A DNA stretch of 64,000 bases. Origin: Candidatus Falkowbacteria bacterium (GTDB lineage Bacteria; Patescibacteriota; Patescibacteriia; Patescibacteriales; UBA12075). The notes under the pieces were generated by a model. The model ran no database searches. It worked only from the letters and a program-made list of their open reading frames with translations, and had not been told where the DNA came from. Shown here piece by piece: positions 4,951 to 57,038 of this stretch. The position numbers were made by a program, and so were the translations under genes. The stretch lies in assembly GCA_003514005.1 (NCBI GenBank), contig DOSJ01000004.1, positions 165,533 through 229,532 of the forward strand, written 5' to 3'. Within the stretch, counting starts at the first letter, position 1; each line of letters begins with the position of its first letter.

Positions 4951-4969
4951 TTTTTTAGTATTTATTTTT

Positions 4970-5118
4970 TTGTCATTCCCGACACTCTTAGCCCCGCAGG
5001 GAAATAATATTAAATGATCGGGAATCTAGGGGTAAAAGATTCAATTATTTATGACAGCAGTGGTTTAATGATAAATTAAGCTTTTACACCTGGATTCCCG
5101 CCTTCGCGGGAATGACAA
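4970..5118. repeat. MITE-like element, family 1 subtype A2 (left arm carries a 35-nt insert CACTC..CCCCGCAGGG..ATTAAATGA)
   Basis: TTGTCATTCCCGA[insert]TCGGGAATC ... GGATTCCCGCCTTCGCGGGAATGACAA. Near-identical copies lie at 6283 and 13890. Confidence 0.75.
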
Positions 5119-5180
5119 GTGGAAGGAAAAATTATTTTTATAAAATGAAATTATGAATTTAATTAAAACATGAATAACAT

Positions 5181-6218: not shown

Positions 6219-6224
6219 GGCTGA

Positions 6225-6572
6225 GTTAAAAGTAAAAAGTTATAAAGTAAGGTTCTTTAGATAATTTTATGTGTAAAATATTTTGTCATTCCCGACACTC
6301 CATAGCCCCGCAGGGAATAGATATTAAATGATCGGGAATCTCGGTGTTAAATTAATTAAATAAATATGTGATAAAATGGTTTTATAACAAATATGCAGTA
6401 TAAAATACTTTGTTATTGTTAAACCAAGATTCCCGCCTGCGCGGGAATGACAAATAAAAGGAATGTGTTTAAAAATTTACCACAGAAATGTCTAAAGAAC
6501 CTAAAGTAAATATAACAATTACTACATAAAAACTTTTAACTTTATAAATTTTAATACTTTATAACTTTAAAC
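6225..6572. repeat. outer intergenic word hairpin that encloses a family-1 MITE (nested architecture)
   Basis: GTTAAAAGTAAAAAGTTATAAAGTAAGGTTCTTTAGAT (6225-6262) is complementary to ATGTCTAAAGAACCTAAAGTAAATATAAC...CTTTATAACTTTAAAC (6488-6572). The MITE at 6283-6453 sits inside. Confidence 0.65.
6283..6453. repeat. MITE-like element, family 1 subtype A2
   Basis: Same termini and insert as 4970-5118. The right arm is GATTCCCGCCTGCGCGGGAATGACAA. Confidence 0.75.
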
Positions 6573-6579
6573 TAAACAT

Positions 6580-9045: not shown

Positions 9046-9069
9046 TTATTGAAATATATTTTTTTCCTC

Positions 9070-9208
9070 TTGTCATTCCCGCGAAGGCGGGAATCTTGGT
9101 GAGAAAAGCAACTCATTATACTAAAAGTTAATGATTTTAAAAACGTTTTTTGTCTAGGAAATTTAAATTATTTTTTAACCAAGATTCCCGCCTTCGCGGG
9201 AATGACAA
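9070..9208. repeat. MITE-like element, family 1 subtype A1
   Basis: TTGTCATTCCCGCGAAGGCGGGAATC ... GATTCCCGCCTTCGCGGGAATGACAA. The ATG at 9202 of the ORF track lies inside the right arm. Confidence 0.75.
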
Positions 9209-9216
9209 AGAATAAT

Positions 9217-17886: not shown

Positions 17887-17933
17887 AACTTAAGTATAAA
17901 AATTTAATTTTTTTGTTTAATTTGTTTGTTTTT

Positions 17934-17971
17934 GTTATTTTCGTGTTTTTGGACAGAGACACGAAAATAAC
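17934..17971. repeat. short intergenic hairpin (GTTATTTTCGTGT / ACACGAAAATAAC)
   Basis: A 13-bp perfect inverted repeat with a 12-nt loop. Confidence 0.6.
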
Positions 17972-18184
17972 GAAAATATACGAATTGAACGAAAAAGGTG
18001 CTTTTAGTTAAAAAACTGTTTGAATTACAAAATTTCCCAAATATTTCATTAGGAAAACTGTTTTTAGTATAGCATTCTTCGTAAAAAAAGCAATGCTTGA
18101 TTTTTTTTTGGAATAGTGTTATTCTGATATTATTAGAAATAATAAAATAAGAGATAATATAGCTAATAATCAGGCAATATTTTA

Positions 18185-18872: not shown

Positions 18873-20240
18873 ATGCCAAGAATTGCTAAAGAAAAAATAA
18901 ATAAAGAGCCGGTTCGCGCGAAAAAGATCGTTCGATTTTCTCGATTACGGGGAATGAAAGATGTTCTATTCGATGAATATCGTTATTGGGATTTGATCAC
19001 TAAAAAGGCCACGGATTTGGCAGATGTATATGATTTTCGCCGGATTGATACGCCGATTTTGGAAAAACTTGACCTATACGAACGCTCAACCGGATCCGAT
19101 ACCGATGTTGTTTCCAAAGAGATGTATTCTTTTATCGACAAGAGCGAAGAAAAAGTCGCTTTGCGTCCGGAAGCTACGCCGGGAATCGTGCGTTCATATA
19201 TTGAGCACGGTTTATTCAATCAACCCCAGCCGATCAAGACATTTTGGCTCGGTCCTTTGTTCCGGCATGAAAAGCCGCAATCCGGACGAACGCGCCAGCA
19301 CAGCCAGATAAATTTTGACGTATTCGGCGAAGCCGGTCCGATAACCGATGCTCAGCTGATCTTGATTACATATAATTTTTATACCGAATTACAGATAGAC
19401 GTTCAGGTTCAGATAAACAGCATCGGCTGTCCGGATTGCCGCAAGGAATATATCAATAAGCTTACCGAATACTATAAAGAAAGAGGAAAACGTTCAAGGC
19501 TTTGCAATGATTGCAAAAGGCGCTTTGTAAAGAATCCTTTGCGACTTTTGGATTGCAAGGAAAAAGACTGCATCGAAGTGCGTGAAGACGCGCCACAGAT
19601 TGTGGATTTCTTGTGCGAAGGCTGTCGCGAGCATTTTATCAAAGTACTCGAATATTTGGACGAACTTGGCATCTCTTACAATTTGAATCCATTTTTGGTC
19701 AGGGGCCTGGATTATTACACGCGTACGGTGTTTGAGATTGTCGCTGTTGATGACGAGGGCGAAAAAGACGAGAATGGACAACGACGCCAGTCTTCCTTGG
19801 GTGGCGGCGGACGTTATGATAATCTGATCGAGATGCTTGGCGGACGACCGACACCGGCTTGCGGTTTTGGCTTGGGCGTTGAGCGGGCGATTTTGAAGAT
19901 CAAAGAAAAGAATATCCCATTAAAAGAAGATAAAAAAGATTTTATATTTTTGGCGCAATTAGGCGAGCAAGCGCGCCTAAAGGCGGTAACCTTGTTCGAA
20001 GAAATGCGCCGCGCCGGCTATCGCGTCCGCCAAGCCTTTACCAAAGACAGCCTGAAAGCCCAGCTTGAAATCGCTGATCGCATCGGCGCGAAGTACAGCC
20101 TGATCCTCGGACAAAAAGAGCTTTTGGACGGCACGATAATCATCCGCGACATGGAATCCGGCACGCAAGAAGTGATTGACCAGAAGAAGATATATGTTGA
20201 AATCAATAAGCGGTTGGAGATGGATAAGGGGGGTAATTAA
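18873..20240 (+). CDS. hisS: histidine--tRNA ligase (canonical copy)
   Basis: Class II motifs FRHEKPQSGRTRQHSQ and GGGGRYDNL, a Cys-rich insertion domain and an HGTP anticodon-binding domain. Confidence 0.95.
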   Translation: MPRIAKEKINKEPVRAKKIVRFSRLRGMKDVLFDEYRYWDLITKKATDLADVYDFRRIDTPILEKLDLYERSTGSDTDVVSKEMYSFIDKSEEKVALRPEATPGIVRSYIEHGLFNQPQPIKTFWLGPLFRHEKPQSGRTRQHSQINFDVFGEAGPITDAQLILITYNFYTELQIDVQVQINSIGCPDCRKEYINKLTEYYKERGKRSRLCNDCKRRFVKNPLRLLDCKEKDCIEVREDAPQIVDFLCEGCREHFIKVLEYLDELGISYNLNPFLVRGLDYYTRTVFEIVAVDDEGEKDENGQRRQSSLGGGGRYDNLIEMLGGRPTPACGFGLGVERAILKIKEKNIPLKEDKKDFIFLAQLGEQARLKAVTLFEEMRRAGYRVRQAFTKDSLKAQLEIADRIGAKYSLILGQKELLDGTIIIRDMESGTQEVIDQKKIYVEINKRLEMDKGGN

Positions 20241-20266
20241 TTTGAAGTTTGGTTTTTGTAAAATAA

Positions 20267-20327
20267 TTAAGTCCTAATTTCTAAATTATAAATCCAAAAA
20301 ATTATAATTTAGAACTTAGGACTTAGA
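20267..20327. repeat. intergenic word hairpin (TTAGAAAT / ATTTCTAA words)
   Basis: TTAAGTCCTAATTTCTAAATTATAA faces TTATAATTTAGAACTTAGGACTTAG. Confidence 0.7.
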
Positions 20328-20417
20328 AATTAATTATTTTTCTAAATCAAATTTTATAATACTAATTAGTAATTTACTGAAAATAACAGTATTAAATCTA
20401 GAAAGGTAGGTGTTATT

Positions 20418-23122: not shown

Positions 23123-24536
23123 ATGATAATTGATAAAGAAAAAAAAGAAACAGTTAAACCAGAGCGTCCTGGTGGGTTTTTGGATTATTTACCAGGTGAT
23201 TTTTTGGCTAGAGAAAAAATGATAAATACTATATCAAGCGTTTTTCGATCTTTTGGATATAATCCTATCGAGACTCCACGAGTAGAATTTTTGAAAACAT
23301 TATCAGGCGAAGAAAGCGATACTGGAAAAAACATTTTTCGGATTTTAAGCAGTAATGATTCTGAGCCATTGGCAATGCCATTTGATCATACAGTCCCTTT
23401 TGCCAGATTGCTTGCGGCTAATCCCTATAATTCAAAAGATAGAAGTGGTATACGATTGCCTTGGCGCAGAATGGTTGTTGGACCAGTATTTCGTGGTGAA
23501 AAACCTCAGGCAGGAAGATATAGACAATTTTATCAATTTGATGCGGATATTGCCGGAACTGATTCAATGATGGCTGACGCAGAAATTGTTGCATTGATTT
23601 TCAATACGCTTTCAGCATTGGGAGTAAAAAAATTTTTGATTCGAATAAATAATAGAAAGATATTAAACGGTTTAGCAGAACTTGTTGAAATAAAAACACG
23701 AGATAAAGTTTCAAAAGAAGACATCACCAAAGAACTAATGAGAATCCTTGATAAGGTTGATAAAATCGGTCTTGAAGGTATAGTCAGCGAATTGCAGAAA
23801 AAACCAGAATCAGATTTTGACCCTGCTCCTTTTTTGTCAAATGAAGCAGTCTTAAAAGTTCGGTCTTATCTTGATATTCAGGGCAGTAATACTGAACGCC
23901 TTAATAAAGCCAAGAATGTTTTTAGTGGAATAAAAATTGCTGAAGAAGGAATAGTAGAGCTTGAAAAAATAATTTCGTTTCTTGCACCCTTGGAAGTACC
24001 AGCAGAATTTGTTAGTATTGATTTTAGTATTGCCAGAGGCTTAGATTATTATACTGGTCCTGTTATGGAAACAATTCTTCTTGACGCCAAGAGATTTGGA
24101 AGTATTTTTAGTGGCGGAAGGAAGATACGATGAGCTTGTAAGACGTTTTACCGGAGAAGCACTACCGGCAGTAGGAGCTTCTGTTGGCGTAGACAGAATG
24201 TTTGCAGCTTTGAATCATTTAGGACTTATTGATAACAAAAATCAGTCAGTAGCAGACGTGCTAGTACTTCGACTCGCGACCGATAAAGATGAAAAATATC
24301 TTGAAATAGCAAATATTATTAGAAAAAGTGGCAAGAATGTTGAGGTTTGTCTTTTTTCAGATACTACTTTTAAAAATCAATTTAGTTTTGCCCTTGGAAG
24401 TGGAGTCAGATATGTTGTGATTTGCGGGGAGGATGAGTTTGCAAAAAGTGAAATTGCAGTCAAGGATATGCAAAAAAGAATACAAGAAACTATTCCTTAT
24501 AATAAAATTGAAGAGTATTTTGATTGTTTGGAATAA
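23123..24536 (+). pseudogene. second, divergent histidyl-tRNA synthetase paralogue interrupted by a 1-nt frameshift
   Basis: ORFs 23123-24133 and 24081-24536 are the catalytic and anticodon-binding parts. Deleting one A at 24118/24119 (GGCGGAAGGAAGATAC) restores SGGGRYDELV, the HisRS motif-3 region. Confidence 0.8.
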
Positions 24537-27733: not shown

Positions 27734-29875
<2,142 letters not shown>

Positions 29876-29889
29876 TTTTTATTCACGGC

Positions 29890-30010
29890 GTAAATCTTTA
29901 GTGGTTCTTATTTTTCCTCCTGCGGAACTCGCGTCCACCGTGTGGTAGTCCAGTCATTGTTTAGGCTCGGACAGTCCTCGGAGTAAAAATAAGAATCACT
30001 AAAGATTTAC
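29890..30010. repeat. 31-bp-stem hairpin with a 59-nt GC-rich core between ligA and gatC
   Basis: GTAAATCTTTAGTGGTTCTTATTTTTCCTCC (29890-29920) pairs 29/31 with GGAGTAAAAATAAGAATCACTAAAGATTTAC (29980-30010). Confidence 0.7.
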
Positions 30011-30336: not shown

Positions 30337-30381
30337 TTTTCGATTTTCGAATGTCGATTGTCGAATTAGTAATTATCTTTT

Positions 30382-30495
30382 TTGTCATTTCGTAGCGAAG
30401 CGGAGAAATCTCTTAACCGTGAATATGCCATAGATAAGGGATTTCTACATTCACAGAGTTTATCCCGTTTTACGGGGCTCATTGCGAAATGACAA
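30382..30495. repeat. MITE-like element, family 1 subtype B (TTGTCATTTCG...CGAAATGACAA)
   Basis: Shares the TTTTTTGTCAT / ATGACAAAA termini and the arm-hairpin layout (ATTTC..GAAAT) with subtype A. The internal sequence differs. Confidence 0.6.
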
Positions 30496-30542
30496 AAAAT
30501 TGTTTATTTTTCCTATTAATCACGGGAAAAATCAAATAAAAT

Positions 30543-32884: not shown

Positions 32885-32973
32885 GAAGTAAAAAGTAGGA
32901 AGTAAGAAGTTAGAAGTAAGAAATAATAATTAATCACATTTTTTCTTACTTCTAACTTCTTACTTCTAACTTT
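32885..32973. repeat. intergenic word hairpin (AGAAGT words) abutting tRNA-Ser
   Basis: GAAGTAAAAAGTAGGAAGTAAGAAGTTAGAAGTAAGAAA faces TTTCTTACTTCTAACTTCTTACTTCTAACTTTT. Confidence 0.75.
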
Positions 32974-32976
32974 TTA

Positions 32977-35514: not shown

Positions 35515-35597
35515 TATATAAATTAAATAAACAAAATAGCGGCTCAAGCAGCCCATAGCCTTTTTAGGTTTTGGGCTGTTTTTTTAGAGAAAAAAAT

Positions 35598-38500
35598 ATG
35601 ATTACCATTACTCTAAGGACAAAACAAATATTAATTTTGATTGTAGTTTTGGCGCTTGTTTTGTCTGCGTTTCCGGCACGCATAACTTATGCTGCTGGAG
35701 TTATGTATTTGCCTGGTGAAACTATATCGCCAGCTTGCGGGCCGACAGAAAGCGGTTGCGGTGTGCGTGCATCTGTTTACACTGCCGATACTATGACTGA
35801 CGGTGCGCTTCTCTTTGCTACATCATCGACATGGTCGTTGCTGTCCGCTGGTGCGGATGGCCAAGTTTTAAAGTTATCCGGTGGGTTGCCTTCATGGGGC
35901 AACGATGATGGCGGCACGAGCTATACAGCCGGTTCAGGACTTTCTCTCGGTGGTTCAATTTTTTCTTTGGATCGGACGGCAACCGGTACTTGGAGCGGAC
36001 TTCAAACTTTTGGTGGCGGAATTTCTTTGGGGGGCAATACATACACTAATCTTGCTGGTACTGGTCTTAGTTTTTCCGGCGGTGCTTTATCAACAGCCCT
36101 TGGAATCACGATTGAATCATCAGAAATTACCGATGAGACTATCGTGTCTGGAGATATCGCTGACGGCACAATAACTTTTGGAAAAATCGCTTCCAATAGT
36201 TGCGGCGCCAATGAAATCATGAAATGGAACGGCTCGGCTTGGGCTTGTTCCACAGATAATAATAATACTTACACCGCTAACACTGGCTTGACTCTTTCTT
36301 CCGGCGCTTTTTCTTTGGATATAAATGGATTATCGGCAATAAGTTCAGTTGATGCTACTGACACTCTCGCCGTCTATACTGCAAGCGGTCTGAAAAAAAT
36401 CACTCGCAGTGATATGTTTAGTGATGTTTTGGGAGCGATGAATTATCGCGGGACTTGGAATGCAACCACGAATTATCCTGATTTATCATCGTATTGTGTT
36501 TCAGGCACCAAGGGGCATTATTATGTTGTTGGAACAAGCGGAACAACAAACTTAAGCGGTATTGCAAGTTGGTCAGTTAATGACTGGGCGGTATGTAATG
36601 GTACAGCTTGGGAAAAAGTGCAGACAACCAACGCTGTCACAAGTGTTTTTGGACGTACGGGTGCGGTTATCGCCTCGGGCGGGGATTATAATGCTTCGCA
36701 AATTACAAATTCTGCAAGCGGAAATATCGCGGCAATAACAGTTCAAAATGCGCTCAATGAATTAGATAATGAAAAATTATCTACTACTCTAAACAGTGGT
36801 TTAATATTTATTGGAAATAGTTCTAATCAAGCTACTGGGATTGCTCTTTCAGGAGATGCAACTATAAATAATGCAGGTGTTATAACCATTGGCGCTGATA
36901 AAGTAACTTTGGGAACTGATACCATGGGCAATTATGTAGCAACTCTGGCTGATAGTGGAGCGGGACTTTTTACAATAGCTAATTCTGGAATGGAAAATGC
37001 AGGAGTAACGCTCTCTTTAGTAGATGATATTTTAAATTTTACAAAATTTGCGGATGCCCTGACATTAGATAATAGCACCAGCATCACTCTTGGCGGAAAT
37101 GATTTAACGACTGCTATTACGAGTACGGGTTTACCAAAATTTATCAGAACAGCTGCTGGGCAATGGATGAATTTTGCTGATGGTACGGATAGTTTTGGAA
37201 TTTATAATATTTCAGGTACTCCCGAAGCATTAATTGCAGCCGACAAAGGTTCTTTGGCAGTAGATACAAACAGCGGCGCTCTTTACATTAAAACTACAGA
37301 TTCTCTCAATACTGGTTGGTCGGCTTTTGGTTTGGCAAGTTCCGGTATTACTTCTCTCAATGGCCTAACTGGATCAACCCAAACTTTTGCTACGAGCACG
37401 AGCGGAACAGATTTTGCTATAACATCTGATGGGACTACTCACACCTTTAGTATTCCTGACGCATCTGCCACCGCTAGAGGACTTATTACTACAGGAACCC
37501 AAGCTATTGTCGGAGCTAAAACTTTAACTTCAAATTTAACGCTATCAGGGTCTGCGGCGAACATAGTTCTTGGTTCTAATTATCTCTCTGGCGATGGCGA
37601 TGATGAAGGTATTTATATTAATTCTTCAGGCAACATCGGCATCGGAACCACTATAACTACAAGCAAACTTACGATTAAAACTACAACCACGGGAGATGGC
37701 ATCCAACTTTATGGTGACGGTAACACCTCGCCATTTTTTAAGATTGGATCAAATTCAAACTACTCGGCAAATGCACGTAACTATGGTTTTGCGGTAGACC
37801 GTGGTCTTTGGGGGGACTTTAGTATATTCCAATCAAGCGTCGCGCAGGGTGATCCATATACCACTGGTACTGCGGTGCTCACTATTAATAAAGATGGTCA
37901 CTTCAGCGTCGGCGCCAGTACTATCGCGGGCACCCTCGGTTTGACAGGAGATTTGGCAGTGAATACGGATAAATTTAATATCAATGCCACTTCTGGAAAC
38001 ACCACAGTAGGAGGTACATTGACCGCTCAGGGCGCGGTGGCCTACAAAAAAGGCTCTGATTTTTCCACGACCGAAACATCAATAAATGTAGATTTTGGAA
38101 ACACTTCCCTTGTTCGTCTCACCGGCGCGAGCGCTCAGACAATCGATACGATTGCAGGTGGTACCGATGGAAAGGTTTTGACTATTGTTAATGCCGGAGC
38201 CAACTCCGCAACAATTAAAGATAGCTCGACAGCTTCTGGTACGGTGGCCAACAAAATCTATACCGGAACGGGTGCTGATATGACTTTGGCGGCAGATGCA
38301 TCACTCCTTCTCATTTATGATTCTGGCGCATCGCGTTGGAGAGTAGTTGGAGGGTCAGGAAGTGGAGGTTTGGGGGGAAGCTCCATTCAAACAATTTCTT
38401 CTACCGGGAATATTTCTGGTTGGGGTTATACAGTTAAAGCTGATGGAACCTCGGCATCATTCACGACAACTCTCCCAACCGCTTCGGGAAATTCTGGAAA

Positions 38501-41441
38501 ATTAATTGAAATCGTGAAAACCGATAATACAGCTAATGCGCTTTCCATTTCTCCGTATGGAAGTGAAACAATTAATGGATCAACTAATAAAATTTATCTT
38601 TATTCGCAAGGTGATTCGGTCGTTATTCGTTCCGACGGTTCAAATTCCTATATCGTTTCCGACAATCGTTCGAGCGTGGGGCAGAGTAAGGGGTATATGT
38701 TCCTTGTTGGTGGCATATCTTCCGTAAGTAACGGCACACAACTTGCTTATACAACAGTGCGTGGAAGCTACGGCACCGATATTGCTCAAAGTGGCAATGG
38801 TGTGCTTTTAAAGGCAGGTAAAACCTATAAATTAACGGCATCCGTTTCGATTTCGAACAGTGCTAATGCTCAGTTAGGTATAGAATTTTACAACACTACA
38901 GCAGGCGTTACTATCTCTTCATCCGGCAACAATGCGTTGAAGCTCGCTTCTAATGCGAGTAATAACTACTCGGATGCGGGGGATCTGAGCGCGGTATTTA
39001 CTCCGACGGTTGATTCTGTTGTCGTTATTCGTGCTATCAATTCAACAGCGGGTGTCAATGCTTCTGCGGACAACTTTGATATCGAAGTTATCTCTACTTC
39101 CCAGAATGTGGTGAATACGGTGGAGTATATTTACGCCAAGAATTCTGCCGGACAAACACTTACGGGAGGGAGCCCACTTACCTTTAATACAACTGTTTCC
39201 GGCAACATCAACAAAAGTAACAACAATACTTTTACCCTCAAAGCTGGGAAAACTTATCGTCTTGAAGGTACGGTTGGTGCTTCGACCGCAAATGCCACTG
39301 CTGTTTTCTTCCAGTGGCGCGATACGACAAATAACACCTACATTGGTAATGTAGCTTCCCGAATACCAGCCGCACATGCTTCTACAGCAGGAGAAGAAAG
39401 TGGTAATGCGATTGCTATATATACACCAACTACCGATGTTACGGTTCAACTTTGGTCGCATACCACACAAGGAAATTTATGGGGTCAAGGCGCGACCGAT
39501 AATGCCGATCAATATTCTTGGATTCAGATCACTCAAATCGGCTCAACGGCTTCGACCGGCGTGGCTTTGAACTCGCTTATTGCCGCCACGGCTTCGGGTG
39601 CGCTGGATAATACAAATTACGGACAGACATGGGATTGGAGTACTGCCACTACACAAACAGGTCTCACTATGACCGGCAACGCGCTTACGACTGGCGGGCT
39701 TTTGAGTCTCACCTCCAGCAATGCTTCTCTGAACTCGACCAATGGCCTTCTCTATGTGGCCAACACCGGTGCCTCGACGAACGGAATCGTCGCTCGCATT
39801 CAATCTAATTCTACTGTCGGATCGGGACTGACAGTTTTGGCAAACGGCCATGTTGGTATCGGCACAACGACACCGATAGCGGCGTTGCATGTATACGGGA
39901 CAGATAAGCAAATAATGATCGATAGGTCTACCGCCACCTCGACAAGATATGGACAACTGCTTTTTGCAGACGGAGGAATCGAAAATTGGTCAATTGGACA
40001 AAGAGTGGGCGATCAAAAATTCCATATTTACAAAACTTTGGCGACAGCGGGAGAGGTATTGACGATTGATACTTCCGGCAACATCGGCATCGGGACGACG
40101 AGTCCTGGAACGACATTAGACGTAAATGGCACCGGACGTTTTGTTTCGCCAGATGTTGGTACGACAGGAGGAATTGTACTTCGCGATAATGTAAGTAATG
40201 ACGGGAATTATCTTCAATTCGTGAATAATGCCGGTACTTCCCAATATTCTTATATCCAGGGATTAAGTTCTGGCGGATTGGCATTTATGGGTGGAAACGT
40301 CGGAATCGGTACCACTGACCCATCATTTGCACTTTCAGTTACGGATGCTGCTAACAGTGAATATGTCACTCAACTAATTAACACAGGCACTACCCCTCAT
40401 GGCATGCAAATCCAACTCACTTCCGCCGTCAGTGGCAGTATTTTTAATGGATTTTTTAATTTTTCAAATTTAATTGGATCAATTACTTACAATGGGACTG
40501 GAGTAAATTATAATCAAACTTCTGACGAAAGGCTCAAGGAAAACATAGTTGACACACACTTCGGTGTTCTTGATTTGATGAAAGTTAATGTCCGTGATTT
40601 TGAATATAAAAATGATTCAAATGGTCAAACTCTAAATGGTTTTATTGCCCAAGAATTACAGAAAATTTATCCTGATGCGGTTACCGTTGGTACTGACGAG
40701 GTTGATGATAATGGTAACTTAATTCATCCGTGGATGGTTGATTATGGTCGATTAACCCCGCTTATTGTCAAATCTATTCAAGACCAACAGACGCAAATTG
40801 AAGCTCTCAAGACAGGTATGGCGGTATCTATGGAAGGATTAGATGGTTTGGTTTTGTCTGGTGGCCTCACAATTGCCGGCGAAGTGGATATGGGTAAAGA
40901 CACAGTTGGTGAGGCAGTTATAAAAGCTGGCGATACTTCTGTGTTAGTTGTCTTTGAAAATAAATATACTAATCAACCAGTTATTACAATTACTAAAATG
41001 ACTGCCGGTGTCTTGTCTGACTACTATGTTAGCGATATAACTGTAAAAGGGTTCAAGATTAACATTGACCCGGCGCAAACCGATAAAGATATTTATTTTA
41101 GTTGGCATGCTTTTGGTTCAAATAGTGGAGTCAGATTATTTAGTGATGGGTTAAAAGAAAATATTGAAGCTATTGATCCGGATGTAACAACTTCGCCGGA
41201 AGTAACGACAGAAGCTCCTCCTGTTCAATCTGGTGATAATCCTATAGTAGGTGATAGCTCTCCAGTGGAGCCAGAAAATCCAGAAATGCCAGCGGATACA
41301 GAGGAATCTATTGAACCGGAAAACCCAGTTGAGTTTGAAACACTTGTGACGCCGGTTGTAGAAAATAATGCCCCAACTGAACCGGAAGCTCCCGCCGAAC
41401 AATCTATCGAACCGGTTACAAGTGAAGATGTGTCGCAATAA
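35598..41441 (+). CDS. giant (~1947 aa) tail-fibre-like surface protein with a peptidase S74 intramolecular chaperone domain, an H-type lectin domain and an acidic P/E-rich tail
   Basis: N-terminal signal/TM. Repeated G(N/H)(I/V)GIGTT.P...L.V fibre motifs. S74 signature TSDERLKENIVD...GFIAQELQKIYPDAV...VDYGRL (Ser codon at 40521). Then VVFENKYTNQPVITIT...VKGFKINI...FSWHAFG. Start moved to ATG 35598. Confidence 0.85.
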   Translation: MITITLRTKQILILIVVLALVLSAFPARITYAAGVMYLPGETISPACGPTESGCGVRASVYTADTMTDGALLFATSSTWSLLSAGADGQVLKLSGGLPSWGNDDGGTSYTAGSGLSLGGSIFSLDRTATGTWSGLQTFGGGISLGGNTYTNLAGTGLSFSGGALSTALGITIESSEITDETIVSGDIADGTITFGKIASNSCGANEIMKWNGSAWACSTDNNNTYTANTGLTLSSGAFSLDINGLSAISSVDATDTLAVYTASGLKKITRSDMFSDVLGAMNYRGTWNATTNYPDLSSYCVSGTKGHYYVVGTSGTTNLSGIASWSVNDWAVCNGTAWEKVQTTNAVTSVFGRTGAVIASGGDYNASQITNSASGNIAAITVQNALNELDNEKLSTTLNSGLIFIGNSSNQATGIALSGDATINNAGVITIGADKVTLGTDTMGNYVATLADSGAGLFTIANSGMENAGVTLSLVDDILNFTKFADALTLDNSTSITLGGNDLTTAITSTGLPKFIRTAAGQWMNFADGTDSFGIYNISGTPEALIAADKGSLAVDTNSGALYIKTTDSLNTGWSAFGLASSGITSLNGLTGSTQTFATSTSGTDFAITSDGTTHTFSIPDASATARGLITTGTQAIVGAKTLTSNLTLSGSAANIVLGSNYLSGDGDDEGIYINSSGNIGIGTTITTSKLTIKTTTTGDGIQLYGDGNTSPFFKIGSNSNYSANARNYGFAVDRGLWGDFSIFQSSVAQGDPYTTGTAVLTINKDGHFSVGASTIAGTLGLTGDLAVNTDKFNINATSGNTTVGGTLTAQGAVAYKKGSDFSTTETSINVDFGNTSLVRLTGASAQTIDTIAGGTDGKVLTIVNAGANSATIKDSSTASGTVANKIYTGTGADMTLAADASLLLIYDSGASRWRVVGGSGSGGLGGSSIQTISSTGNISGWGYTVKADGTSASFTTTLPTASGNSGKLIEIVKTDNTANALSISPYGSETINGSTNKIYLYSQGDSVVIRSDGSNSYIVSDNRSSVGQSKGYMFLVGGISSVSNGTQLAYTTVRGSYGTDIAQSGNGVLLKAGKTYKLTASVSISNSANAQLGIEFYNTTAGVTISSSGNNALKLASNASNNYSDAGDLSAVFTPTVDSVVVIRAINSTAGVNASADNFDIEVISTSQNVVNTVEYIYAKNSAGQTLTGGSPLTFNTTVSGNINKSNNNTFTLKAGKTYRLEGTVGASTANATAVFFQWRDTTNNTYIGNVASRIPAAHASTAGEESGNAIAIYTPTTDVTVQLWSHTTQGNLWGQGATDNADQYSWIQITQIGSTASTGVALNSLIAATASGALDNTNYGQTWDWSTATTQTGLTMTGNALTTGGLLSLTSSNASLNSTNGLLYVANTGASTNGIVARIQSNSTVGSGLTVLANGHVGIGTTTPIAALHVYGTDKQIMIDRSTATSTRYGQLLFADGGIENWSIGQRVGDQKFHIYKTLATAGEVLTIDTSGNIGIGTTSPGTTLDVNGTGRFVSPDVGTTGGIVLRDNVSNDGNYLQFVNNAGTSQYSYIQGLSSGGLAFMGGNVGIGTTDPSFALSVTDAANSEYVTQLINTGTTPHGMQIQLTSAVSGSIFNGFFNFSNLIGSITYNGTGVNYNQTSDERLKENIVDTHFGVLDLMKVNVRDFEYKNDSNGQTLNGFIAQELQKIYPDAVTVGTDEVDDNGNLIHPWMVDYGRLTPLIVKSIQDQQTQIEALKTGMAVSMEGLDGLVLSGGLTIAGEVDMGKDTVGEAVIKAGDTSVLVVFENKYTNQPVITITKMTAGVLSDYYVSDITVKGFKINIDPAQTDKDIYFSWHAFGSNSGVRLFSDGLKENIEAIDPDVTTSPEVTTEAPPVQSGDNPIVGDSSPVEPENPEMPADTEESIEPENPVEFETLVTPVVENNAPTEPEAPAEQSIEPVTSEDVSQ

Positions 41442-43726: not shown

Positions 43727-44890
43727 ATGAAATTATTAATTTGTACGCAAAAAGTAGATAAAAATGACGATCTTTTGGGGTTTTTTCATGCTTGGATCGC
43801 GGAGTTTGCGCAGAATTGCGAAGGCGTTACCGTGGTTTGTTTGTTTCGGGGAGAGGTGGATTTGCCTGAGAATGTTAGGGTTTTGTCGTTGGGAAAAGAA
43901 AGTGGGGATTTTCGATTTTCGATTTTCGATTTTCGATTTATTTTAAAATTTAAATATTTAATTAATTTTTTTAAATATATTTGGCAGGAGCGGAAGAATT
44001 ATGATACTGTGTTTGTGCATATGAATTCGATTTATGTTTTGCTTGGGGGATTGTTTTGGAAGGCGTGGGGAAAAAAGATTGGGCTTTGGTATGCGCATGG
44101 GCATGCGCCTTGGCAGCTCTTGGTTGCGGAAAAAATGGTTGATGTTGTGTTTACGTCTACGGCGAGCGGATGTAGGTTGAAGTCTGGGAAGATTCGGATT
44201 GTGGGGCAGGGAATAGACGTTGGAAATTTCCGATTTCCGATTTCCGATTTCCGATTTAGGGAAATACAAAAATCGAAAATCGAAAACCCGAAAAGTCCCG
44301 TTTGGACATCGGGTCCTTTACGGGATCGAAAATCGAAAATATCCCTGATTACTGTCGGCAGAATTTCGCCTGTAAAAAATCTTGAAACTTTGATTAATGC
44401 TGTTGAATTATTGGTAAAAAAGGGGATTGATGTTAAGCTGGATATTGTTGGGGCTATTGGATTAGTGGAACAGAAAGCATATTATGACTTTTTGTCGAAA
44501 ATGATAAATGAGAAAGGCTTGGCGAAAAATATTCAATTTGTCGGCTCTGTGCCGAATAAAGATATTGTTGAGTATTTGCAAGCGGCTGATATCTTTGTCA
44601 GCGCCAGTCAGACCGGCAGTTTGGACAAAACTTTTCTCGAGGCAATGGCCTGCGGTTTACCTGTAATCGGCTGTAATGTGGCGTTGGATGCTGTTTTGGG
44701 AGAATATAAAGATAGGCTATTTTATAGTGCGGGAGATTATTTGGCCTTGAGCGATAAAATCGAGAACGTGCTTGGTTTAAGCGAAGCAGAGTATGCGAAG
44801 ATGGCGGAGGATTTAAGAGGGGTGGTGGTGAGGGAGCATGGGTTGGGTGAGTTTGTGAAGAAAATTTTAAAAATATCCAATACTCAATAA
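43727..44890 (+). CDS. GT4-family glycosyltransferase carrying two in-frame repeat insertions
   Basis: The C-terminal half has ...ITVGRISPVKNL...ASQTGSLDKTFLEAMACGLPVIG (the E(x7)E region). Confidence 0.8.
   Translation: MKLLICTQKVDKNDDLLGFFHAWIAEFAQNCEGVTVVCLFRGEVDLPENVRVLSLGKESGDFRFSIFDFRFILKFKYLINFFKYIWQERKNYDTVFVHMNSIYVLLGGLFWKAWGKKIGLWYAHGHAPWQLLVAEKMVDVVFTSTASGCRLKSGKIRIVGQGIDVGNFRFPISDFRFREIQKSKIENPKSPVWTSGPLRDRKSKISLITVGRISPVKNLETLINAVELLVKKGIDVKLDIVGAIGLVEQKAYYDFLSKMINEKGLAKNIQFVGSVPNKDIVEYLQAADIFVSASQTGSLDKTFLEAMACGLPVIGCNVALDAVLGEYKDRLFYSAGDYLALSDKIENVLGLSEAEYAKMAEDLRGVVVREHGLGEFVKKILKISNTQ
43907..43939. repeat. (GATTTTC)n word tract in frame inside the GT4 gene
   Basis: GATTTTCGATTTTCGATTTTCGATTTTCGATTT encodes DFRFSIFDFRF. 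Confidence 0.8.
44225..44340. repeat. composite TTCCGATT / AATCGAAA palindromic word block plus a GC hairpin, in frame inside the GT4 gene
   Basis: (ATTTCCG)x4 ... AAAATCGAAAATCGAAAA ... CCCGAAAAGTCCCG-TTTGGACAT-CGGGTCCTTTACGGG ... ATCGAAAATCGAAAAT. It encodes [38 protein letters not shown] in the inter-domain linker. Confidence 0.8.
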
Positions 44891-44975
44891 TCAATATCCA
44901 ATAAATATCAAAGTATATAATATTCAATTTTTGGATTGATTATTTTATATTGAATGGATATTGAGTATTGAATAT
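44878..44975. repeat. ATTCAATA-word hairpin, copy 1 of a ~100-bp direct repeat pair flanking the asnB-like gene
   Basis: Roughly 85% identical by eye to 46851-46950. Shared core: AATATTCAATTTTTGGATTG..TATTTTATATTGAATGGATATTG.GTATTGA. Confidence 0.75.
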
Positions 44976-44982
44976 TAATAAT

Positions 44983-47687: not shown

Positions 47688-47693
47688 TGCTTG

Positions 47694-47785
47694 GCAGGGA
47701 TTTATAAGATTTATAAGATTTTTTAGAAAGGTATTATATCTTATTCCTATTATAAAAAAATCATATAAATCTTATAAATTCCTGC
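47694..47785. repeat. intergenic word hairpin (TTATAAGAT words)
   Basis: GCAGGGATTTATAAGATTTATAAGATT faces AATCATATAAATCTTATAAATTCCTGC. Confidence 0.75.
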
Positions 47786-47794
47786 AAATTTTTT

Positions 47795-53148: not shown

Positions 53149-53180
53149 TTTTGTGTGTGAAAATAAAAATTATCTCTTTT

Positions 53181-53340
53181 TTGTCATCTCGAACCGCAGT
53201 GAGAGATCTATAATACAAGAATAATAAAAAATCAAGCTATATAAAGAGTCGAGAATTAAAATCTATTTATAGAAATACACATGGTAAATTATTCACATAT
53301 TATAGATCTCTCCGCTCGCTTCGCTCGGTCGAGATGACAA
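53181..53340. repeat. MITE-like element, family 1 subtype C (TTGTCATCTCG...CGAGATGACAA)
   Basis: Arms TTGTCATCTCGAACCGCAGTGAGAGATCTATAAT and ATTATAGATCTCTCCGCTCGCTTCGCTCGGTCGAGATGACAA. Same termini as subtypes A and B. Confidence 0.65.
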
Positions 53341-53378
53341 AAAAGTATGTTTAATGAGAATTAAGAAACGATAAAAAA

Positions 53379-54824
53379 ATGAATTTGCCTCTACAAAAAA
53401 ATAAAACTGACATCCTTTTCGTTAATCCTCCTGTTTCCCAGGAGGAGCGTTATGGCGTGAAATTCAAAGCAGGCGGGCAGACACTGCAGACCGGTTTGGC
53501 TGTTTTGGCTGCGATTACGCGCGACAATGGTTATGCGACGCGGATATTGGACGCGACCGCGCTTTCGATGAGTTATGATGAAACAGTTGAGAAAATCATT
53601 GAGATAGATCCGCGTTATATTGGGATTACAGCAGTAACGATTTCAATTTTTAATGCGGTTGAAATTATTAAACGTTTGAAAGCAAACGGTGTCGAGGCGA
53701 AAATATTTTTGGGCGGTCCGCACATTACAGCCGCGCCCAAAGAAACTTTTGAAAAATTTCCGGAAATAGAGATTGGCGCGATCGGCGAGGGAGATATTAC
53801 TATTTTGGAATTGATTGAGGCTTGTGATAAAAATCTGGATCTTGGCAATGTCAAAGGTCTGGTATTCCGCAAAGGTAGCGAGATAATTATAACACCACCG
53901 CGTGAGCCATTTATGGATTTGGATTCATTGCCTCTGCCGGCCTGGGACTTGTTTCCGGATATTGCAAAGTATTATTATCCGCCTGCGCATACTGTCCGCC
54001 GTTTGCCAGCGACCGTCTTGATTACTTCGCGCGGTTGTCCTGGGCTTTGCACGTATTGCGACAACAAAGTATTCGGCCGCAGACTGCGTTGTTATAGTGC
54101 GGATTATGTAATCCGCATGATTAAACATTTGCAAAAAGAATATGGCATGCGCGAAATCCAGTTTCGGGATGATAATTTTTTGGTTTTTCGTGAACGCTTA
54201 AAAGAGCTGTGCAATCGAATGATTGCCGAGAAAATGGATATTGTTTGGAGCTGTGCCGGACGGGTGGATATGATCAACAAAGAGACATTGGACCTGATGA
54301 AAAAAGCCGGCTGTTGGCAGATCTGGTACGGGATCGAATCGGGTAGTCAAAAAGTTTTGAACGCGATCAAGAAAAATACGAGTCCGGAAAAGATTCGGCG
54401 TGCAATTACTTTAACAAAGGCGGCCGGAATATCGCCGTGCGGATTTTTTATGATCGGCATGCCGACCGAGACCGAGGAGGATATAAAGGAAACGATTGAT
54501 TTGCTTTTGGAATTGCCTTTGGATGAATTTCACATGACGCATCTAACACCTTTGCCCGGTTCGGAAATACATGCAACGGCTTTTCAGTTTGGCGAGTTTG
54601 AAGACAATTGGAAAAAGATGAGTAATTGGTCAACGATTTTTGTGCCGCATGGTTTGAGTAAGGAAAAGCTGACATATTATTCTAATCTTGCTTTCAAGAA
54701 ATTTTATTTTCGGCCAAGAATTATTTGGCAGTATTTATTGAAAATAAGAACACCGCGACATGCGTTGGTATATTTTAAAGCATTTTTGGCTTTGGTTTCT
54801 TATGTGACACAGAAGAAGCGATGA
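53379..54824 (+). CDS. B12-binding domain radical SAM enzyme
   Basis: An N-terminal Rossmann-like cobalamin-binding region, followed by SRGCPGLCTYCDN (CxxxCxxC). Confidence 0.85.
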   Translation: MNLPLQKNKTDILFVNPPVSQEERYGVKFKAGGQTLQTGLAVLAAITRDNGYATRILDATALSMSYDETVEKIIEIDPRYIGITAVTISIFNAVEIIKRLKANGVEAKIFLGGPHITAAPKETFEKFPEIEIGAIGEGDITILELIEACDKNLDLGNVKGLVFRKGSEIIITPPREPFMDLDSLPLPAWDLFPDIAKYYYPPAHTVRRLPATVLITSRGCPGLCTYCDNKVFGRRLRCYSADYVIRMIKHLQKEYGMREIQFRDDNFLVFRERLKELCNRMIAEKMDIVWSCAGRVDMINKETLDLMKKAGCWQIWYGIESGSQKVLNAIKKNTSPEKIRRAITLTKAAGISPCGFFMIGMPTETEEDIKETIDLLLELPLDEFHMTHLTPLPGSEIHATAFQFGEFEDNWKKMSNWSTIFVPHGLSKEKLTYYSNLAFKKFYFRPRIIWQYLLKIRTPRHALVYFKAFLALVSYVTQKKR

Positions 54825-54906
54825 TTCGCGTGAGCTGTTGATCAAAAAATAAAACATTGTTATAGTTTAAATATAAAAATAGATATATTAACATGTTTTT
54901 ATAAGT

Positions 54907-55073
54907 TATTTACGTTCGCTTTTGGCAGATTTTTGTTTTTTACTCCATGCGGCAAATCTGTGCATTTTTTAAATAATTATGAATATTAATAAATATATTG
55001 AATAATTATTTAAAAAATTGCTACGATTTCCGAATTACGTGAAAAACAAAAATCAGCCAAAAGCTAGTTGAAT
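54907..55073. repeat. 167-bp hairpin element, copy A of a direct repeat pair
   Basis: About 90% identical by eye to 56871-57038. Internally palindromic (CGCTTTTGGCAGATTTTTGTTTTTTAC ... GTGAAAAACAAAAATCAGCCAAAAGC). Confidence 0.85.
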
Positions 55074-55108
55074 ATCGTTATAGAAATTTTTGAAAACTAT
55101 TTAAATAT

Positions 55109-55204
55109 AAATATTTATCCGAAATAAGGTTAAATTCCTTTGCTGTCCCGCAACTGTAAAGTCTGTTTGATGAAACAGAACAAGCCAGGTCGCGTTAAAT
55201 ATTT
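55109..55204 (+). promoter_or_regulatory. cobalamin riboswitch aptamer (compact form)
   Basis: GGTTAAATTCC (55128-38), GCTGTCCCGCAACTGTAAA (55142-60), hairpin CTGTTT-GATG-AAACAG (55163-78), B12-box-like AAGCCAGG (55182-89), and P1 candidates AAATATTTA (55109-17) / TAAATATTT (55196-204). Confidence 0.75.
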
Positions 55205-55286
55205 TGTAATAATAAATAACACAAAACTTTTCGTGGAATTGAGAGTTTGTGAAACAGGCGGTCTTTTGATTGCTATGTTTTTCCTC

Positions 55287-55311
55287 TCTCCATGCGAATG
55301 GAGATTTTTTT
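55287..55311 (+). terminator. riboswitch expression platform: terminator hairpin that also sequesters the RBS
   Basis: TCTCCAT-GCGA-ATGGAGA followed by TTTTTTT. The GGAGA in the 3-prime strand lies 8 nt before ATG 55312. Upstream GAGAG (55242-46) could compete for CTCTC. Confidence 0.7.
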
Positions 55312-56862
55312 ATGACAAAAAACAAAATCAAGAATGGAATAAAATTATTTTTGCTCTTTGCGCTTGTCTGTCCTTTGTTTGCGACAGCCGGAATCAGTGA
55401 AGCAAGAACTTACCTGGAAACTTTAACGCCTGACCCTTGGATTACGCAGGCGCTGATCGCGTCCGGCAAGACTAACGTTGCGCTAGATCATTTAAAAAGC
55501 GTATTCGGCACATTGGCGACCGATTATGCCAAAACTATTTTAGCGATAGCGGCGGCAGGGGAAAGCCCCGCAACCTTTGGAAATATTGATTATGTCGCGA
55601 AACTAAAAACATATTTGAATAACGACCAGATAGGTGACGCAGGTCTTTTGAATGATGATATGTGGGCGATTCTTGCCCTGGGTTCTGTTGGTAAAGGTAC
55701 TGCGAATGAAGCGCAAAAAGCCAAGGCATATATTATCGCGAACCAGAATACCGATGGCGGCTGGGGCTATGCCAAGGGTGGAGAGAGTGATACTAATGAT
55801 ACGGCTGCCGGGATAATCGCACTACGCGAAGCGGGTGTATCTGCGAACGATGTCGCAATTACAAAAGCTTTGGCTTACCTCAAGTCTGTCCAAAACAATG
55901 ACGGCGGTTTTGGCTGGTCCGGCGGATCCGATTCGGACTCCGGTTCCGATGCTTGGGTGATTATCGCTTTGCATAAGCTGGGAATCAGTCCGGCAACTTG
56001 GGCCAAAGACGCTAAAACCCCGCTGTCGCATCTGCAAACGCTGCAAGATACGGATGGCGGATTTTGGTGGGTAAATCAAGGTACTTCTGAATTTAATAAC
56101 AAAGCCATGACGCCCTATGCCGTGATCGCCTTGGCTGGCAAAAGTTTTCCGATCGCTCGTTTCGGCGGAATTGAAAGCGGGTATCATATCCGGATTGAAG
56201 GAGGCAACAGTACAATCTGCAATACGCGCGTTGAAGGCATAAAAGCGTTGGATTTGATAAAAAATGCGGCAACAAAATGTAATTTTACTTACAGCATAAA
56301 AGACACGACCTTTGGCCCGTATTTGGAACAAATCAATAATGAAATAGCTGCCGGAGCGGACGGTTGGATCTATTTGATTAATAATGAATCACCCGCAGTT
56401 GGCATGGCCGACTATATCTTGAAAACCAATGATGACGTTCTGGTATATTTTGGGCAATGGGGGATTTTGCCGGAAAGAATCAAAAACGGTAGTGTTTCAA
56501 ATTCCGTAGGATTAAAAGTTGAAATTGACTCGGCCGGACCGGATGTTGCCGGTGCGTCATTGATATTTACTGTCAGCCCGGATAATCTGGATTTTGGAAA
56601 GATCAAAGCCGGAACTTCAAAAAAACAAACATTAATATTAAAAAACGAAGGTACGGTTGACCTTAGGCTAAGCGCCAGTGTTGATGGTGATATTGTGTTC
56701 AAAGATTATTTGAAATTGGCAAGCAGTACTTGGGGGACATATTCGCAAGAACTTGCGCACGATAATAATAGTAATTTAGAAGCGGAACTTGATATTCCTT
56801 CAACATTTAAAAATTCGGGCGTAAAGAATGGGAGTCTGATTATTTGGGCAAGTCCGAAGTAA
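55312..56862 (+). CDS. secreted transcobalamin-like protein: alpha/alpha-toroid (prenyltransferase-type repeats) + DUF4430-like beta domain + Ig-like domain
   Basis: Signal peptide KLFLLFALVCPLFATAG. Repeats NQNTDGGWGY, VQNNDGGFGW, LQDTDGGFWW. Then ...GADGWIYLINNESPAVGMADYILKTNDDVLVYF. Then LDFGKIKAGTSKKQTLILKNEG. Start set at ATG 55312 after the riboswitch terminator. Confidence 0.75.
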   Translation: MTKNKIKNGIKLFLLFALVCPLFATAGISEARTYLETLTPDPWITQALIASGKTNVALDHLKSVFGTLATDYAKTILAIAAAGESPATFGNIDYVAKLKTYLNNDQIGDAGLLNDDMWAILALGSVGKGTANEAQKAKAYIIANQNTDGGWGYAKGGESDTNDTAAGIIALREAGVSANDVAITKALAYLKSVQNNDGGFGWSGGSDSDSGSDAWVIIALHKLGISPATWAKDAKTPLSHLQTLQDTDGGFWWVNQGTSEFNNKAMTPYAVIALAGKSFPIARFGGIESGYHIRIEGGNSTICNTRVEGIKALDLIKNAATKCNFTYSIKDTTFGPYLEQINNEIAAGADGWIYLINNESPAVGMADYILKTNDDVLVYFGQWGILPERIKNGSVSNSVGLKVEIDSAGPDVAGASLIFTVSPDNLDFGKIKAGTSKKQTLILKNEGTVDLRLSASVDGDIVFKDYLKLASSTWGTYSQELAHDNNSNLEAELDIPSTFKNSGVKNGSLIIWASPK

Positions 56863-56870
56863 TTTTTTTG

Positions 56871-57038
56871 TATTTCACATTCGCTCTTGGCTGATTTTTG
56901 TTTTTTACTCCATGCGGCAAATCTGTGCGTTTTTTAAATAATTATGAATATTAATAAAAATATTGAATAATTATTTAAAAAATCGCTACGATTTCCGAAT
57001 TACGTAAAAAATAAAAATCAGCCAAGAGCCAGTTAGGC
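56871..57038. repeat. 168-bp hairpin element, copy B of the direct repeat pair
   Basis: See 54907-55073. It shares the left terminus TATTTCACATTCG with the family-2 copy at 59984. Confidence 0.85.

Follow-up and report, generated by a model that had tools for sequence, protein, structure and literature searches.

Two long palindromic repeats, probably lineage-restricted elements, in adjacent spacers of a putative B12-uptake operon of Candidatus Falkowbacteria

The 64,000-nucleotide stretch of Candidatus Falkowbacteria DNA analysed here (the window) carries on its plus strand a putative cobalamin-uptake operon, the first gene of which (gene 1; 55312–56862) is preceded by a cobalamin riboswitch aptamer (55076–55211, plus strand). 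The aptamer matches RF00174 with 31.2 bits (E 1.5e-5), just under the gathering score of 31.5, and is not listed in a scan at the gathering threshold; cobalamin riboswitches scoring above threshold lie at the same position in four relatives (L003, L007, L009 and L012). The riboswitch and leader are 95–99% conserved at the nucleotide level in the closest sibling (L002), the conserved stretch beginning at about 55110. An expression platform (55287–55311, plus strand) follows, in which a terminator-like hairpin (55287–55304) and a T-run overlie gene 1's ribosome-binding site, GGAG. The gene 1 protein is secreted and combines an alpha/alpha toroid with DUF4430 and Ig-like domains; it is a putative extracellular B12 binder. 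Its preliminary description as transcobalamin-like agrees with this domain architecture, but a sequence search of the PDB returned exclusively toroids of the squalene-cyclase type. Downstream lies g2 (57083–57565, plus strand), which encodes 160 aa and whose place directly after gene 1 is ancestral among relatives; upstream is a B12-binding radical-SAM gene (53379–54824, plus strand), a 95% (amino acid) ortholog of which precedes the riboswitch in L002.

Two copies of a direct repeat occupy the spacers on either side of the riboswitch and gene 1. A repeat finder reports them as one two-copy family of 172 nt (copy A, 54898–55069; copy B, 56863–57034; both plus strand) with 91% ungapped identity and a spacing of 1965 nt, and blastn aligns 54907–55069 with 56871–57034 at 93.3% over 164 nt (E 7.6e-67), essentially the same intervals as those first described (54907–55073 and 56871–57038, about 90% identical by eye, in the same orientation). 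Copy A lies between the radical-SAM gene and the riboswitch. Copy B fills the spacer between gene 1 and g2, with its hairpin core (56883–57029) 21 nt past the gene 1 stop codon and 54 nt before g2. The preliminary description was also borne out in that gene 1 is the sole gene between the repeats and copy B separates it from the downstream genes. A sigma-70-like promoter match (TTGATC-17-TATAGT, TG-extended; 54838–54866, plus strand) stands upstream of copy A, which would make copy A part of the operon's 5′ leader if the promoter is real; the number of promoter-like sites does not exceed the shuffle expectation, and we therefore regard this match as weak.

Each copy is, as had been proposed, a long imperfect hairpin. 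Both fold into a 147-nt structure with an AT-rich stem of about 60 bp (core of copy A, 54918–55064), and copy B has an uninterrupted basal stem of 26 bp. The predicted RNA minimum free energies are −60.6 kcal/mol (A) and −66.6 kcal/mol (B), compared with about −25 ± 3.6 kcal/mol for dinucleotide shuffles (z of −9.9 and −11.6, respectively; 0/200 shuffles as good). Within the hairpin the copies differ at eight positions, and all 59 of the 59 pairs of A's fold are retained in B (P = 7e-4, or 1.4e-4 when only Watson–Crick pairs are counted). Two of the changes are doubly compensatory (C-G in place of T-A at 54921/55061, G-C in place of A-T at 54964/55019), although the reverse test, placing B's fold on A, gives a weaker compensatory signal (P = 0.075). 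Such changes can also be produced mechanically in DNA palindromes through template switching. The sense-strand hairpin of the repeat is more stable than its complement by 4 kcal/mol, and we considered this G·U asymmetry as a sign of RNA-level selection; since hairpins between minus-strand genes also favour the plus strand, the excess is not RNA-specific, and the strand asymmetry of hairpin stability is compositional.

The repeat appears to be narrowly distributed. Only the two copies, 2 kb apart, are present in the window and in approximately 83 kb of its source scaffold, and copy B is found again in a strain of 99.8% identity (L005), whose contig breaks inside it. An exact 20-mer from the repeat core matched nothing in the GTDB representative genomes or the JGI metagenomes; a gapped pattern built on the terminal repeats returned 19 metagenome loci, all of them unrelated palindromes with only the required 12-mers in common, and IMG/VR gave no match to the repeat pattern besides one chance 17-mer match. 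A candidate third member at 59998–60166 was rejected, as its resemblance to copy B is confined to the 14-nt left flank (GTATTTCACATTCG) and its hairpin body is unrelated. The Rfam scan of both repeats found no known RNA family, with only microRNA-type noise at E > 1, and the 147-nt unit contains no open reading frame. No target-site duplication is recognisable at either copy, whether around the hairpin or around the whole stretch of homology; one may have been lost through erosion.

Comparison with relatives places the genes before the repeats. The riboswitch, gene 1 and a g2 homolog directly follow one another in L003 (70% at the amino-acid level), L007 (47%), L009 (42%) and L012 (34%), where the spacer between gene 1 and g2 measures 4–70 nt as against 220 nt here, and none of these four has a long inverted repeat at the operon. 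The closest sibling, L002 (79%), has an identical gene order with palindromes unrelated to A/B at both sites: an unrelated palindrome with 49-nt arms at the site of copy A, and a GTCATTCCC-type element directly after gene 1. In L006 (75%) the sequence following gene 1 is unrelated to copy B. The A/B repeats are absent from both sites in all six of these relatives and present in L005. For deep synteny a contig search was used, in which the relatives among the matches listed all stood at 48% identity or below. Because relatives keep the order of riboswitch, gene 1 and g2 without the A/B repeats, these three form an ancestral contiguous unit, and the repeats were inserted secondarily.

The two copies are also far from the only long hairpins in this DNA. 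The 64 kb contain no fewer than 18 inverted repeats whose arms reach or exceed 30 nt, and about 13 of the 43 spacers in the window reach an MFE per nucleotide of −0.27 or lower, compared with about four weak hairpins of this kind in about 54 kb of relatives. Hairpins of many different sequences also lie between housekeeping genes, and one site is inside ligA, where a 62-nt palindrome sits in frame. A second palindrome family, defined by GTCATTCCC termini, has five copies, and three of these (4968–5120, 6281–6455 and 9068–9210, together spanning 4968–9210) provide an internal control: they bracket exactly pheS (5181–6218) and exactly pheT (6580–9045). With hairpins in about one third of the spacers and GTCATTCCC elements around pheS and pheT, the bracketing of a single gene is here a by-product.

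Taken together, the data are best explained, with a probability of roughly two in three, by A and B being two lineage-restricted palindromic elements of a Correia- or MITE-like kind, secondarily present in neighbouring spacers of a B12-uptake operon that is itself ancestral. Their build, at about 165 nt, is that of Correia, MITE and ERIC elements. The copies would have been placed into these two consecutive spacers by local transposition, duplication or gene conversion, and the enclosure of the riboswitch and gene 1 would result from the occupation of neighbouring spacers rather than mark the boundary of a mobile cassette. We found no relevant description of palindromic elements in CPR/Patescibacteria in the literature searched, and the closest parallels come from other bacteria. 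The Correia elements of Neisseria (CREE/nemis) have a length of 104–108 or 153–157 bp and 26-bp inverted repeats, lie in intergenic spacers, both 5′ of genes and within operons, occupy sites in one strain that are empty in another, and form RNA hairpins when co-transcribed, the transcripts being bound or cleaved by RNase III (PMC2649163). A and B resemble them in being non-coding and about 150 bp long, and the basal stem of copy B is likewise 26 bp; they differ in lacking any sequence relationship, a recognisable TA or other target-site duplication and evidence of an IHF site, and in number, with two copies seen here and over 100 in each Neisseria genome. Like MITEs, A and B are a small non-coding unit with terminal inverted repeats (a hairpin of 147 nt closed by a 26-bp terminal stem) and occupy sites that are empty at the orthologous positions in relatives. 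Dispersal across the genome is a further defining trait of MITEs, and for A/B the approximately 83 kb covered contains two copies, with none in public collections. The palindromic elements of Rickettsia (RPE) offer a further likeness, in that they invaded a small-genome lineage and some lie in frame in genes (compare the ligA palindrome); A and B, in contrast, are intergenic and show no sequence relationship to them.

At the RNA level, each copy, once transcribed, would form a very stable hairpin without a U-tract, most likely an RNase III substrate and/or a barrier to 3′ exonucleases. The 26-bp basal stem of copy B fits the length of an RNase III substrate (at least about 20 bp of uninterrupted double-stranded RNA). 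With copy B in place, the gene 1 mRNA would then have a stability separate from that of the transporter genes that follow. Copy A would either form a cap at the 3′ terminus of the message from the gene upstream or belong to a 5′ leader. REP/BIME units provide a precedent: within operons (malE–malF) their hairpins protect upstream mRNA from 3′ exonucleases and set differential expression. Copy B shares with REP/BIME and ERIC/IRU sequences its position as an intergenic palindrome directly after a binding-protein gene within a transport operon. REP units, however, are about 35 nt long (range about 20–40), highly multicopy and linked to RAYT transposases, whereas the A/B unit is 147–172 nt in two copies and no RAYT (Y1 transposase) was found in the 83 kb. 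The preliminary description had offered as its alternative that the hairpins serve as processing or insulator sites within the operon; this has some support in the compensatory upkeep of the stem and in the position of copy B between two genes ancestrally transcribed together. It is plausible that the hairpins affect RNA, as an RNase III site or as an mRNA stabiliser. They are not simple terminators, since they have no U-tract. A stable hairpin soon after a stop codon is reminiscent of a Rho-independent terminator, but here the stem is AT-rich and extends over about 60 bp, the 3′ flanks of the two copies (tagttgaatatcg and cagttaggcataa) contain no T-run on either strand, and a terminator scan calls neither copy.

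Such an effect raises the question of whether the hairpins are regulatory RNA selected by the host, with RNase III-type processing giving a stable monocistronic message for an abundant extracellular B12 binder, insulated from the upstream gene and the transporter genes, much as a REP does behind malE or Correia elements do in mtrCDE. This we consider unlikely, although it is the best of the alternatives. The stem is kept through compensatory substitutions, the two genes that copy B separates were ancestrally co-transcribed, no U-tract follows the hairpins, a promoter-like site precedes copy A, and L002 too has long hairpins, of other sequence, at both sites. On the other hand, more distant relatives run the same operon without hairpins and the strand asymmetry is compositional. 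Diverse hairpins moreover fill about one third of the spacers, including those between housekeeping genes, and occur inside ligA, so the hairpins around gene 1 need no locus-specific selection. A broader version, less probable again, treats A, as part of the 5′ leader, and B, behind the stop codon, as a selected two-ended RNA module and adds RecA-mediated, reversible loss or amplification of the riboswitch and gene 1. If true, it would mean that RNase III-type processing yields a hairpin-capped, long-lived monocistronic mRNA for a secreted B12 binder, that B12 scavenging varies in copy number in a streamlined CPR symbiont, and that a CPR genome has undergone an undescribed, massive expansion of long palindromes, some of which were domesticated.

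The preliminary description had itself read the arrangement chiefly as a cassette of about 1.96 kb acquired, duplicated or excised by recombination between the repeats. Such a cassette would have arrived through Campbell-type integration via a repeat copy, or would be excised or amplified by homologous recombination between the direct repeats. The geometry invites this reading, as the copies stand in direct orientation and agree at about 92% of positions, including unbroken identical runs of 36, 29, 24 and 21 nt, and enclose exactly one regulatory-plus-coding unit. Identity blocks of 36–21 nt are in principle long enough for RecA-dependent recombination. Synteny contradicts it, however: the enclosed unit is ancestral in relatives that have no repeats, and the comparison with L002, in which the unit is retained in place with other palindromes at both sites, speaks against it in the same way. 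Gene 1, g2 and the radical-SAM gene are each found on 24 long contigs in a single shared neighbourhood, and no deletion or other cassette variant was found among the 24 assemblies, the neighbourhood of gene 1 being uniform. Neither integrase, transposase nor RAYT was found among the scanned genes of the window or its flanks (approximately 83 kb, excepting a few short open reading frames). Since same-family repeats flanking one gene are routine here, pheS and pheT being bracketed in identical geometry, a cassette-like arrangement is in itself no evidence of mobility. Acquisition of the riboswitch and gene 1 as a cassette is largely refuted, and recombination of the unit in any of these forms appears very improbable.

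A more specific form of the cassette idea, which takes the repeats for a CALIN-like pair of integron-type attC sites bounding an integron gene cassette, has scarcely any probability left. The likeness lies in imperfect, directly oriented palindromes around a single open reading frame and in a GTTRRRY core at the aligned 3′ boundary of both copies (GTTGAAT in A, GTTAGGC in B), where the A/B homology ends after ...AGTT and divergence starts after G|TT, as at cassette junctions. This core is, however, short and degenerate, with a chance of about 1/256 that both copies match given the shared GTT. No 5′ inverse core RYYYAAC is present to pair with it: an AAC motif is lacking from the left flanks (agttatttacgttc and ttgtatttcacattc), and the stem terminates in GC...GC within the core site. 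The hairpin of 147 nt exceeds the usual attC length of 57–141 nt, there are only two sites and no array, and neither a tyrosine recombinase in about 83 kb nor an attI was found. The supposed cassette, finally, comes with a riboswitch of its own and has an ancestral position, unlike an acquired, variable unit, and we rejected attC membership on these grounds. Least probable of all is an assembly artefact: short-read metagenome assemblies can misplace repeats, and one related contig, that of L005, has a chimeric 5′ end and a break within copy B, but about 8% of positions differ between the copies, their flanks are distinct, and the arrangement recurs on 24 contigs drawn from several assemblies, NCBI GCA_003453605.1 among them.

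Secondary insertion of two related palindromic elements remains our preferred reading, and its main value is one of caution, same-family repeats around single genes being commonplace in this genome, as pheS and pheT illustrate. For a lineage of Patescibacteria whose genome is small and streamlined, the load is considerable, with long palindromes making up about one third of the window's non-coding DNA. Here a palindrome has landed in a conserved, riboswitch-controlled B12-uptake operon, where it could shift the expression of the binder relative to that of the transporter.

A repeat search recovers copies A and B, the direct-repeat hairpins upstream of the riboswitch and in the spacer between gene 1 and the next gene downstream, g2 (57083–57565), as a single two-copy direct family in the window (54898–55069 and 56863–57034; 172 nt, 91% ungapped identity, spacing 1965). 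Blastn aligns them at 93.3% identity over 164 nt (E 7.6e-67), with no third copy within the 64-kb window; the pair noted in the preliminary description is thus real. Its account of each copy as a long imperfect hairpin (cores 54918–55064 in A, 56883–57029 in B) is likewise borne out: the RNA minimum free energies are −60.6 (A) and −66.6 (B) kcal/mol, where shuffled sequences give about −25 (z −9.9 and −11.6); the minus strand folds as well (−63.5).

The eight differences between A and B within the hairpin support maintenance of the stem, as judged from the two sequences. Half of them combine into compensatory double changes at 54921/55061 (T-A to C-G) and 54964/55019 (A-T to G-C), two more retain pairing through G·U, one abolishes a mismatch, and the last adjoins the apical loop, leaving the apical stem merely one pair shorter. 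All 59 pairs of A's fold are kept in B (P = 7e-4, from 100,000 randomisations of where these substitutions fall), and in the reverse test 59 of the 61 pairs of B's fold are kept in A (P = 0.075). Alternatively, template-switch correction in DNA palindromes could give the compensatory pattern. The sense-strand fold is more stable by 4 kcal/mol; since hairpins between minus-strand genes show a like plus-strand advantage, this effect is compositional and we rejected it as an informative signal.

A and B enclose, as had been described, only a riboswitch and one gene: a cobalamin-riboswitch match (RF00174; 55076–55211; 31.2 bits, below the gathering score of 31.5, and not listed in a gathering-threshold scan), its terminator-like hairpin over the ribosome-binding site (55287–55304), and gene 1 (55312–56862; signal peptide, alpha/alpha toroid, DUF4430 and Ig-like domain). 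The domain architecture fits the earlier label 'transcobalamin-like', but sequence matches in the PDB are only to squalene-cyclase-type toroids, so that the label derives from architecture. Homologs of gene 1 are common across Patescibacteria, including Falkowbacteria, Buchananbacteria and Parcubacteria. The 9-mer CTCCATGCG lies in an unpaired internal loop of both repeats (54944–54952 in A, 56909–56917 in B) and recurs at 55288–55296, matching exactly the anti-RBS strand of the expression-platform hairpin (TCTCCATGCGAATGGAGA); base-pairing of the repeat loops with the ribosome-binding site of gene 1 is conceivable in principle, although this may be coincidence.

We classify A and B as palindromic intergenic repeat elements, a known kind, in a CPR lineage unusually rich in them. 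The window contains at least 18 short-looped inverted repeats whose arms reach 30 nt or more. About 13 of its 43 spacers fold at −0.27 kcal/mol per nt or below, and the listed hairpins add up to about 2.5 kb, which is roughly one third of the non-coding sequence. Relatives at 34–70% identity have almost no such long spacer hairpins; only about 4 weak examples were found in about 54 kb, so the load is specific to this lineage. The literature searched yielded no description of such a load in CPR/Patescibacteria. The long hairpins, present in about a third of spacers, are mutually unrelated in sequence and often made of short internal quasi-repeats (for example 1295–1433, 12100–12296, 17909–17996, 20240–20360, 29890–30010, 32889–32976, 44879–44976, 47691–47788, 53190–53323 and 59998–60166). 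The 14-mer GTATTTCACATTCG occurs exactly twice (56870–56883 and 59983–59996, the latter within the 3′ end of ORF 59355–60020), each time abutting the left edge of a long hairpin, namely copy B and the unrelated 59998–60166; this may be a chance match (blastn E about 0.1) or reflect a common insertion-site or remnant motif. Within ligA (NAD-dependent DNA ligase, 27737–29875), an in-frame 62-nt near-perfect palindrome (28042–28103) built of GATTTCC/GGAAATC repeats encodes 22 residues just 5′ of the KxDG adenylation motif, a placement that recalls Rickettsia palindromic elements.

A family of MITE-like palindromes whose TTTGTCATTCCCGCG...CGCGGGAATGACAA termini are conserved while the cores vary has five copies, all in the first 14 kb (476–616, 4968–5120, 6281–6455, 9068–9210 and 13888–14044); related termini occur at 30380–30497 and 53178–53345, and the family is also found at both contig ends of L002, the closest sibling locus. 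Direct-orientation copies flank exactly pheS (5181–6218) and exactly pheT (6580–9045), indicating that single-gene bracketing is a routine by-product of palindromes in consecutive spacers. Elsewhere in the window, two HisRS-family genes lie 3 kb apart (18873–20240 and 23123–24133), the second of which (336 aa, without an anticodon-binding domain) may be HisZ-like or a paralogous regulatory subunit. The only recognisable domain of a giant ORF (35571–41441; 1956 aa) lies at its C terminus: Peptidase_S74 (endosialidase chaperone), which is characteristic of phage tail-fibre-like or surface proteins.

A and B resemble Correia/ERIC-type MITEs in being about 150 nt long, non-coding, intergenic and present or absent between relatives, with a 26-bp terminal stem; Correia elements measure 104–108 or 153–157 bp, have 26-bp inverted repeats and, once transcribed, are targets of RNase III binding or cleavage (PMC2649163). 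Of the features that define MITEs, a target-site duplication is recognisable at neither copy, and no copy besides A and B turned up in about 83 kb of scaffold, in related loci totalling about 1 Mb, or in GTDB representative genomes, JGI metagenomes and IMG/VR. Local duplication or gene conversion between adjacent spacers is therefore as likely an origin as transposition. AT-rich metagenome contigs from a terminal-repeat pattern search (L103 9115–9522, L098 and L108) carry tandem TTGGCTGATTTT / AAAATCAGCCAA iterons in inverted arrays; internally unrelated to A/B, they were rejected as relatives.

The proposal that the repeats delimit a mobile cassette is not supported, since riboswitch, gene 1 and g2 are contiguous in relatives lacking A/B. 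An above-threshold cobalamin riboswitch lies directly 5′ of the gene 1 homolog in L003 (70% amino acid identity), L007 (47%), L009 (Saccharibacteria, 42%) and L012 (34%); gene 1 is followed there after 4–70 nt by the g2 homolog and usually then a DUF6580 gene. That spacer holds no long inverted repeat in any of the four, whereas in the window it spans 220 nt and is occupied by copy B. L002 (gene 1 79%, upstream B12-binding radical-SAM gene 95% at the amino acid level) keeps the order radical-SAM gene, riboswitch, gene 1, with riboswitch and leader 95–99% identical to the window (radical-SAM gene 53379–54824); rather than the unit being absent beside a single remaining repeat, it is retained with other palindromes, an unrelated one with 49-nt arms at copy A's place (L002 1513–1628) and a GTCATTCCCGCG-type element at the contig end, 13 nt past the gene 1 stop. 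Sequence 3′ of the gene 1 homolog is unrelated to the window in L006 (75%), and copy B is present in the 99.8%-identical strain L005, whose contig breaks inside it. The unit is thus, on comparative sequence grounds, ancestral and not an acquired cassette, and the repeats are later, lineage-specific additions. Divergence from L002 is mosaic (55110–56882 against L002 1657–3447): identity over the riboswitch, the leader and the 5′-most 500 nt of gene 1 is 82–99% per 100-nt window (mostly 87–99%), falls to 62–76% over the last 1 kb of that gene, and is 89% for the radical-SAM gene, a pattern suggestive either of recombination inside the C-terminal two thirds of the putative secreted B12-binder or of diversifying selection on that part.

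The window sequence also occurs in groundwater metagenome ENA ERZ28564009 scaffold_114 (244 kb) and NCBI GCA_003453605.1. For each of gene 1, g2 and the radical-SAM gene, several assemblies together yielded 24 long contigs, on which the gene neighbourhood is identical throughout, and no cassette-lacking variant was seen in this coarse test, which compares contigs rather than reads and collapses similar places. No integrase, transposase or RAYT was found among the scanned window genes (all but a few short ORFs) or in 10-kb flanks. The identity blocks shared by A and B (36, 29, 24 and 21 nt) could in principle permit rare homologous deletion or amplification; nothing observed points to either. 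A/B homology stops right after ...AGTT, where GTTGAAT or GTTAGGC follows, both fitting the attC core GTTRRRY; we rejected the copies as attC sites because both lack the partner inverse core RYYYAAC, they are oversize and without IntI, and the 'cassette' is ancestral.

The alternative put forward in the preliminary description, hairpin function at the RNA level, is plausible. Neither copy has a U-run, and both were therefore rejected as classical terminators. Copy B, if transcribed, would form an RNA duplex of about 60 bp lying 21 nt past the gene 1 stop, within an ancestrally co-transcribed pair, and we infer RNase III cleavage and/or a 3′-exonuclease block as its most likely effect. Copy A would act similarly on its upstream gene or, if a weak promoter-like site at 54838–54866 is real, would belong to the 5′ leader and precede the riboswitch. 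The REP after malE raises expression of the upstream gene relative to downstream genes; by analogy, cleavage or block at copy B is predicted to shift expression in favour of the secreted binder over the genes downstream.
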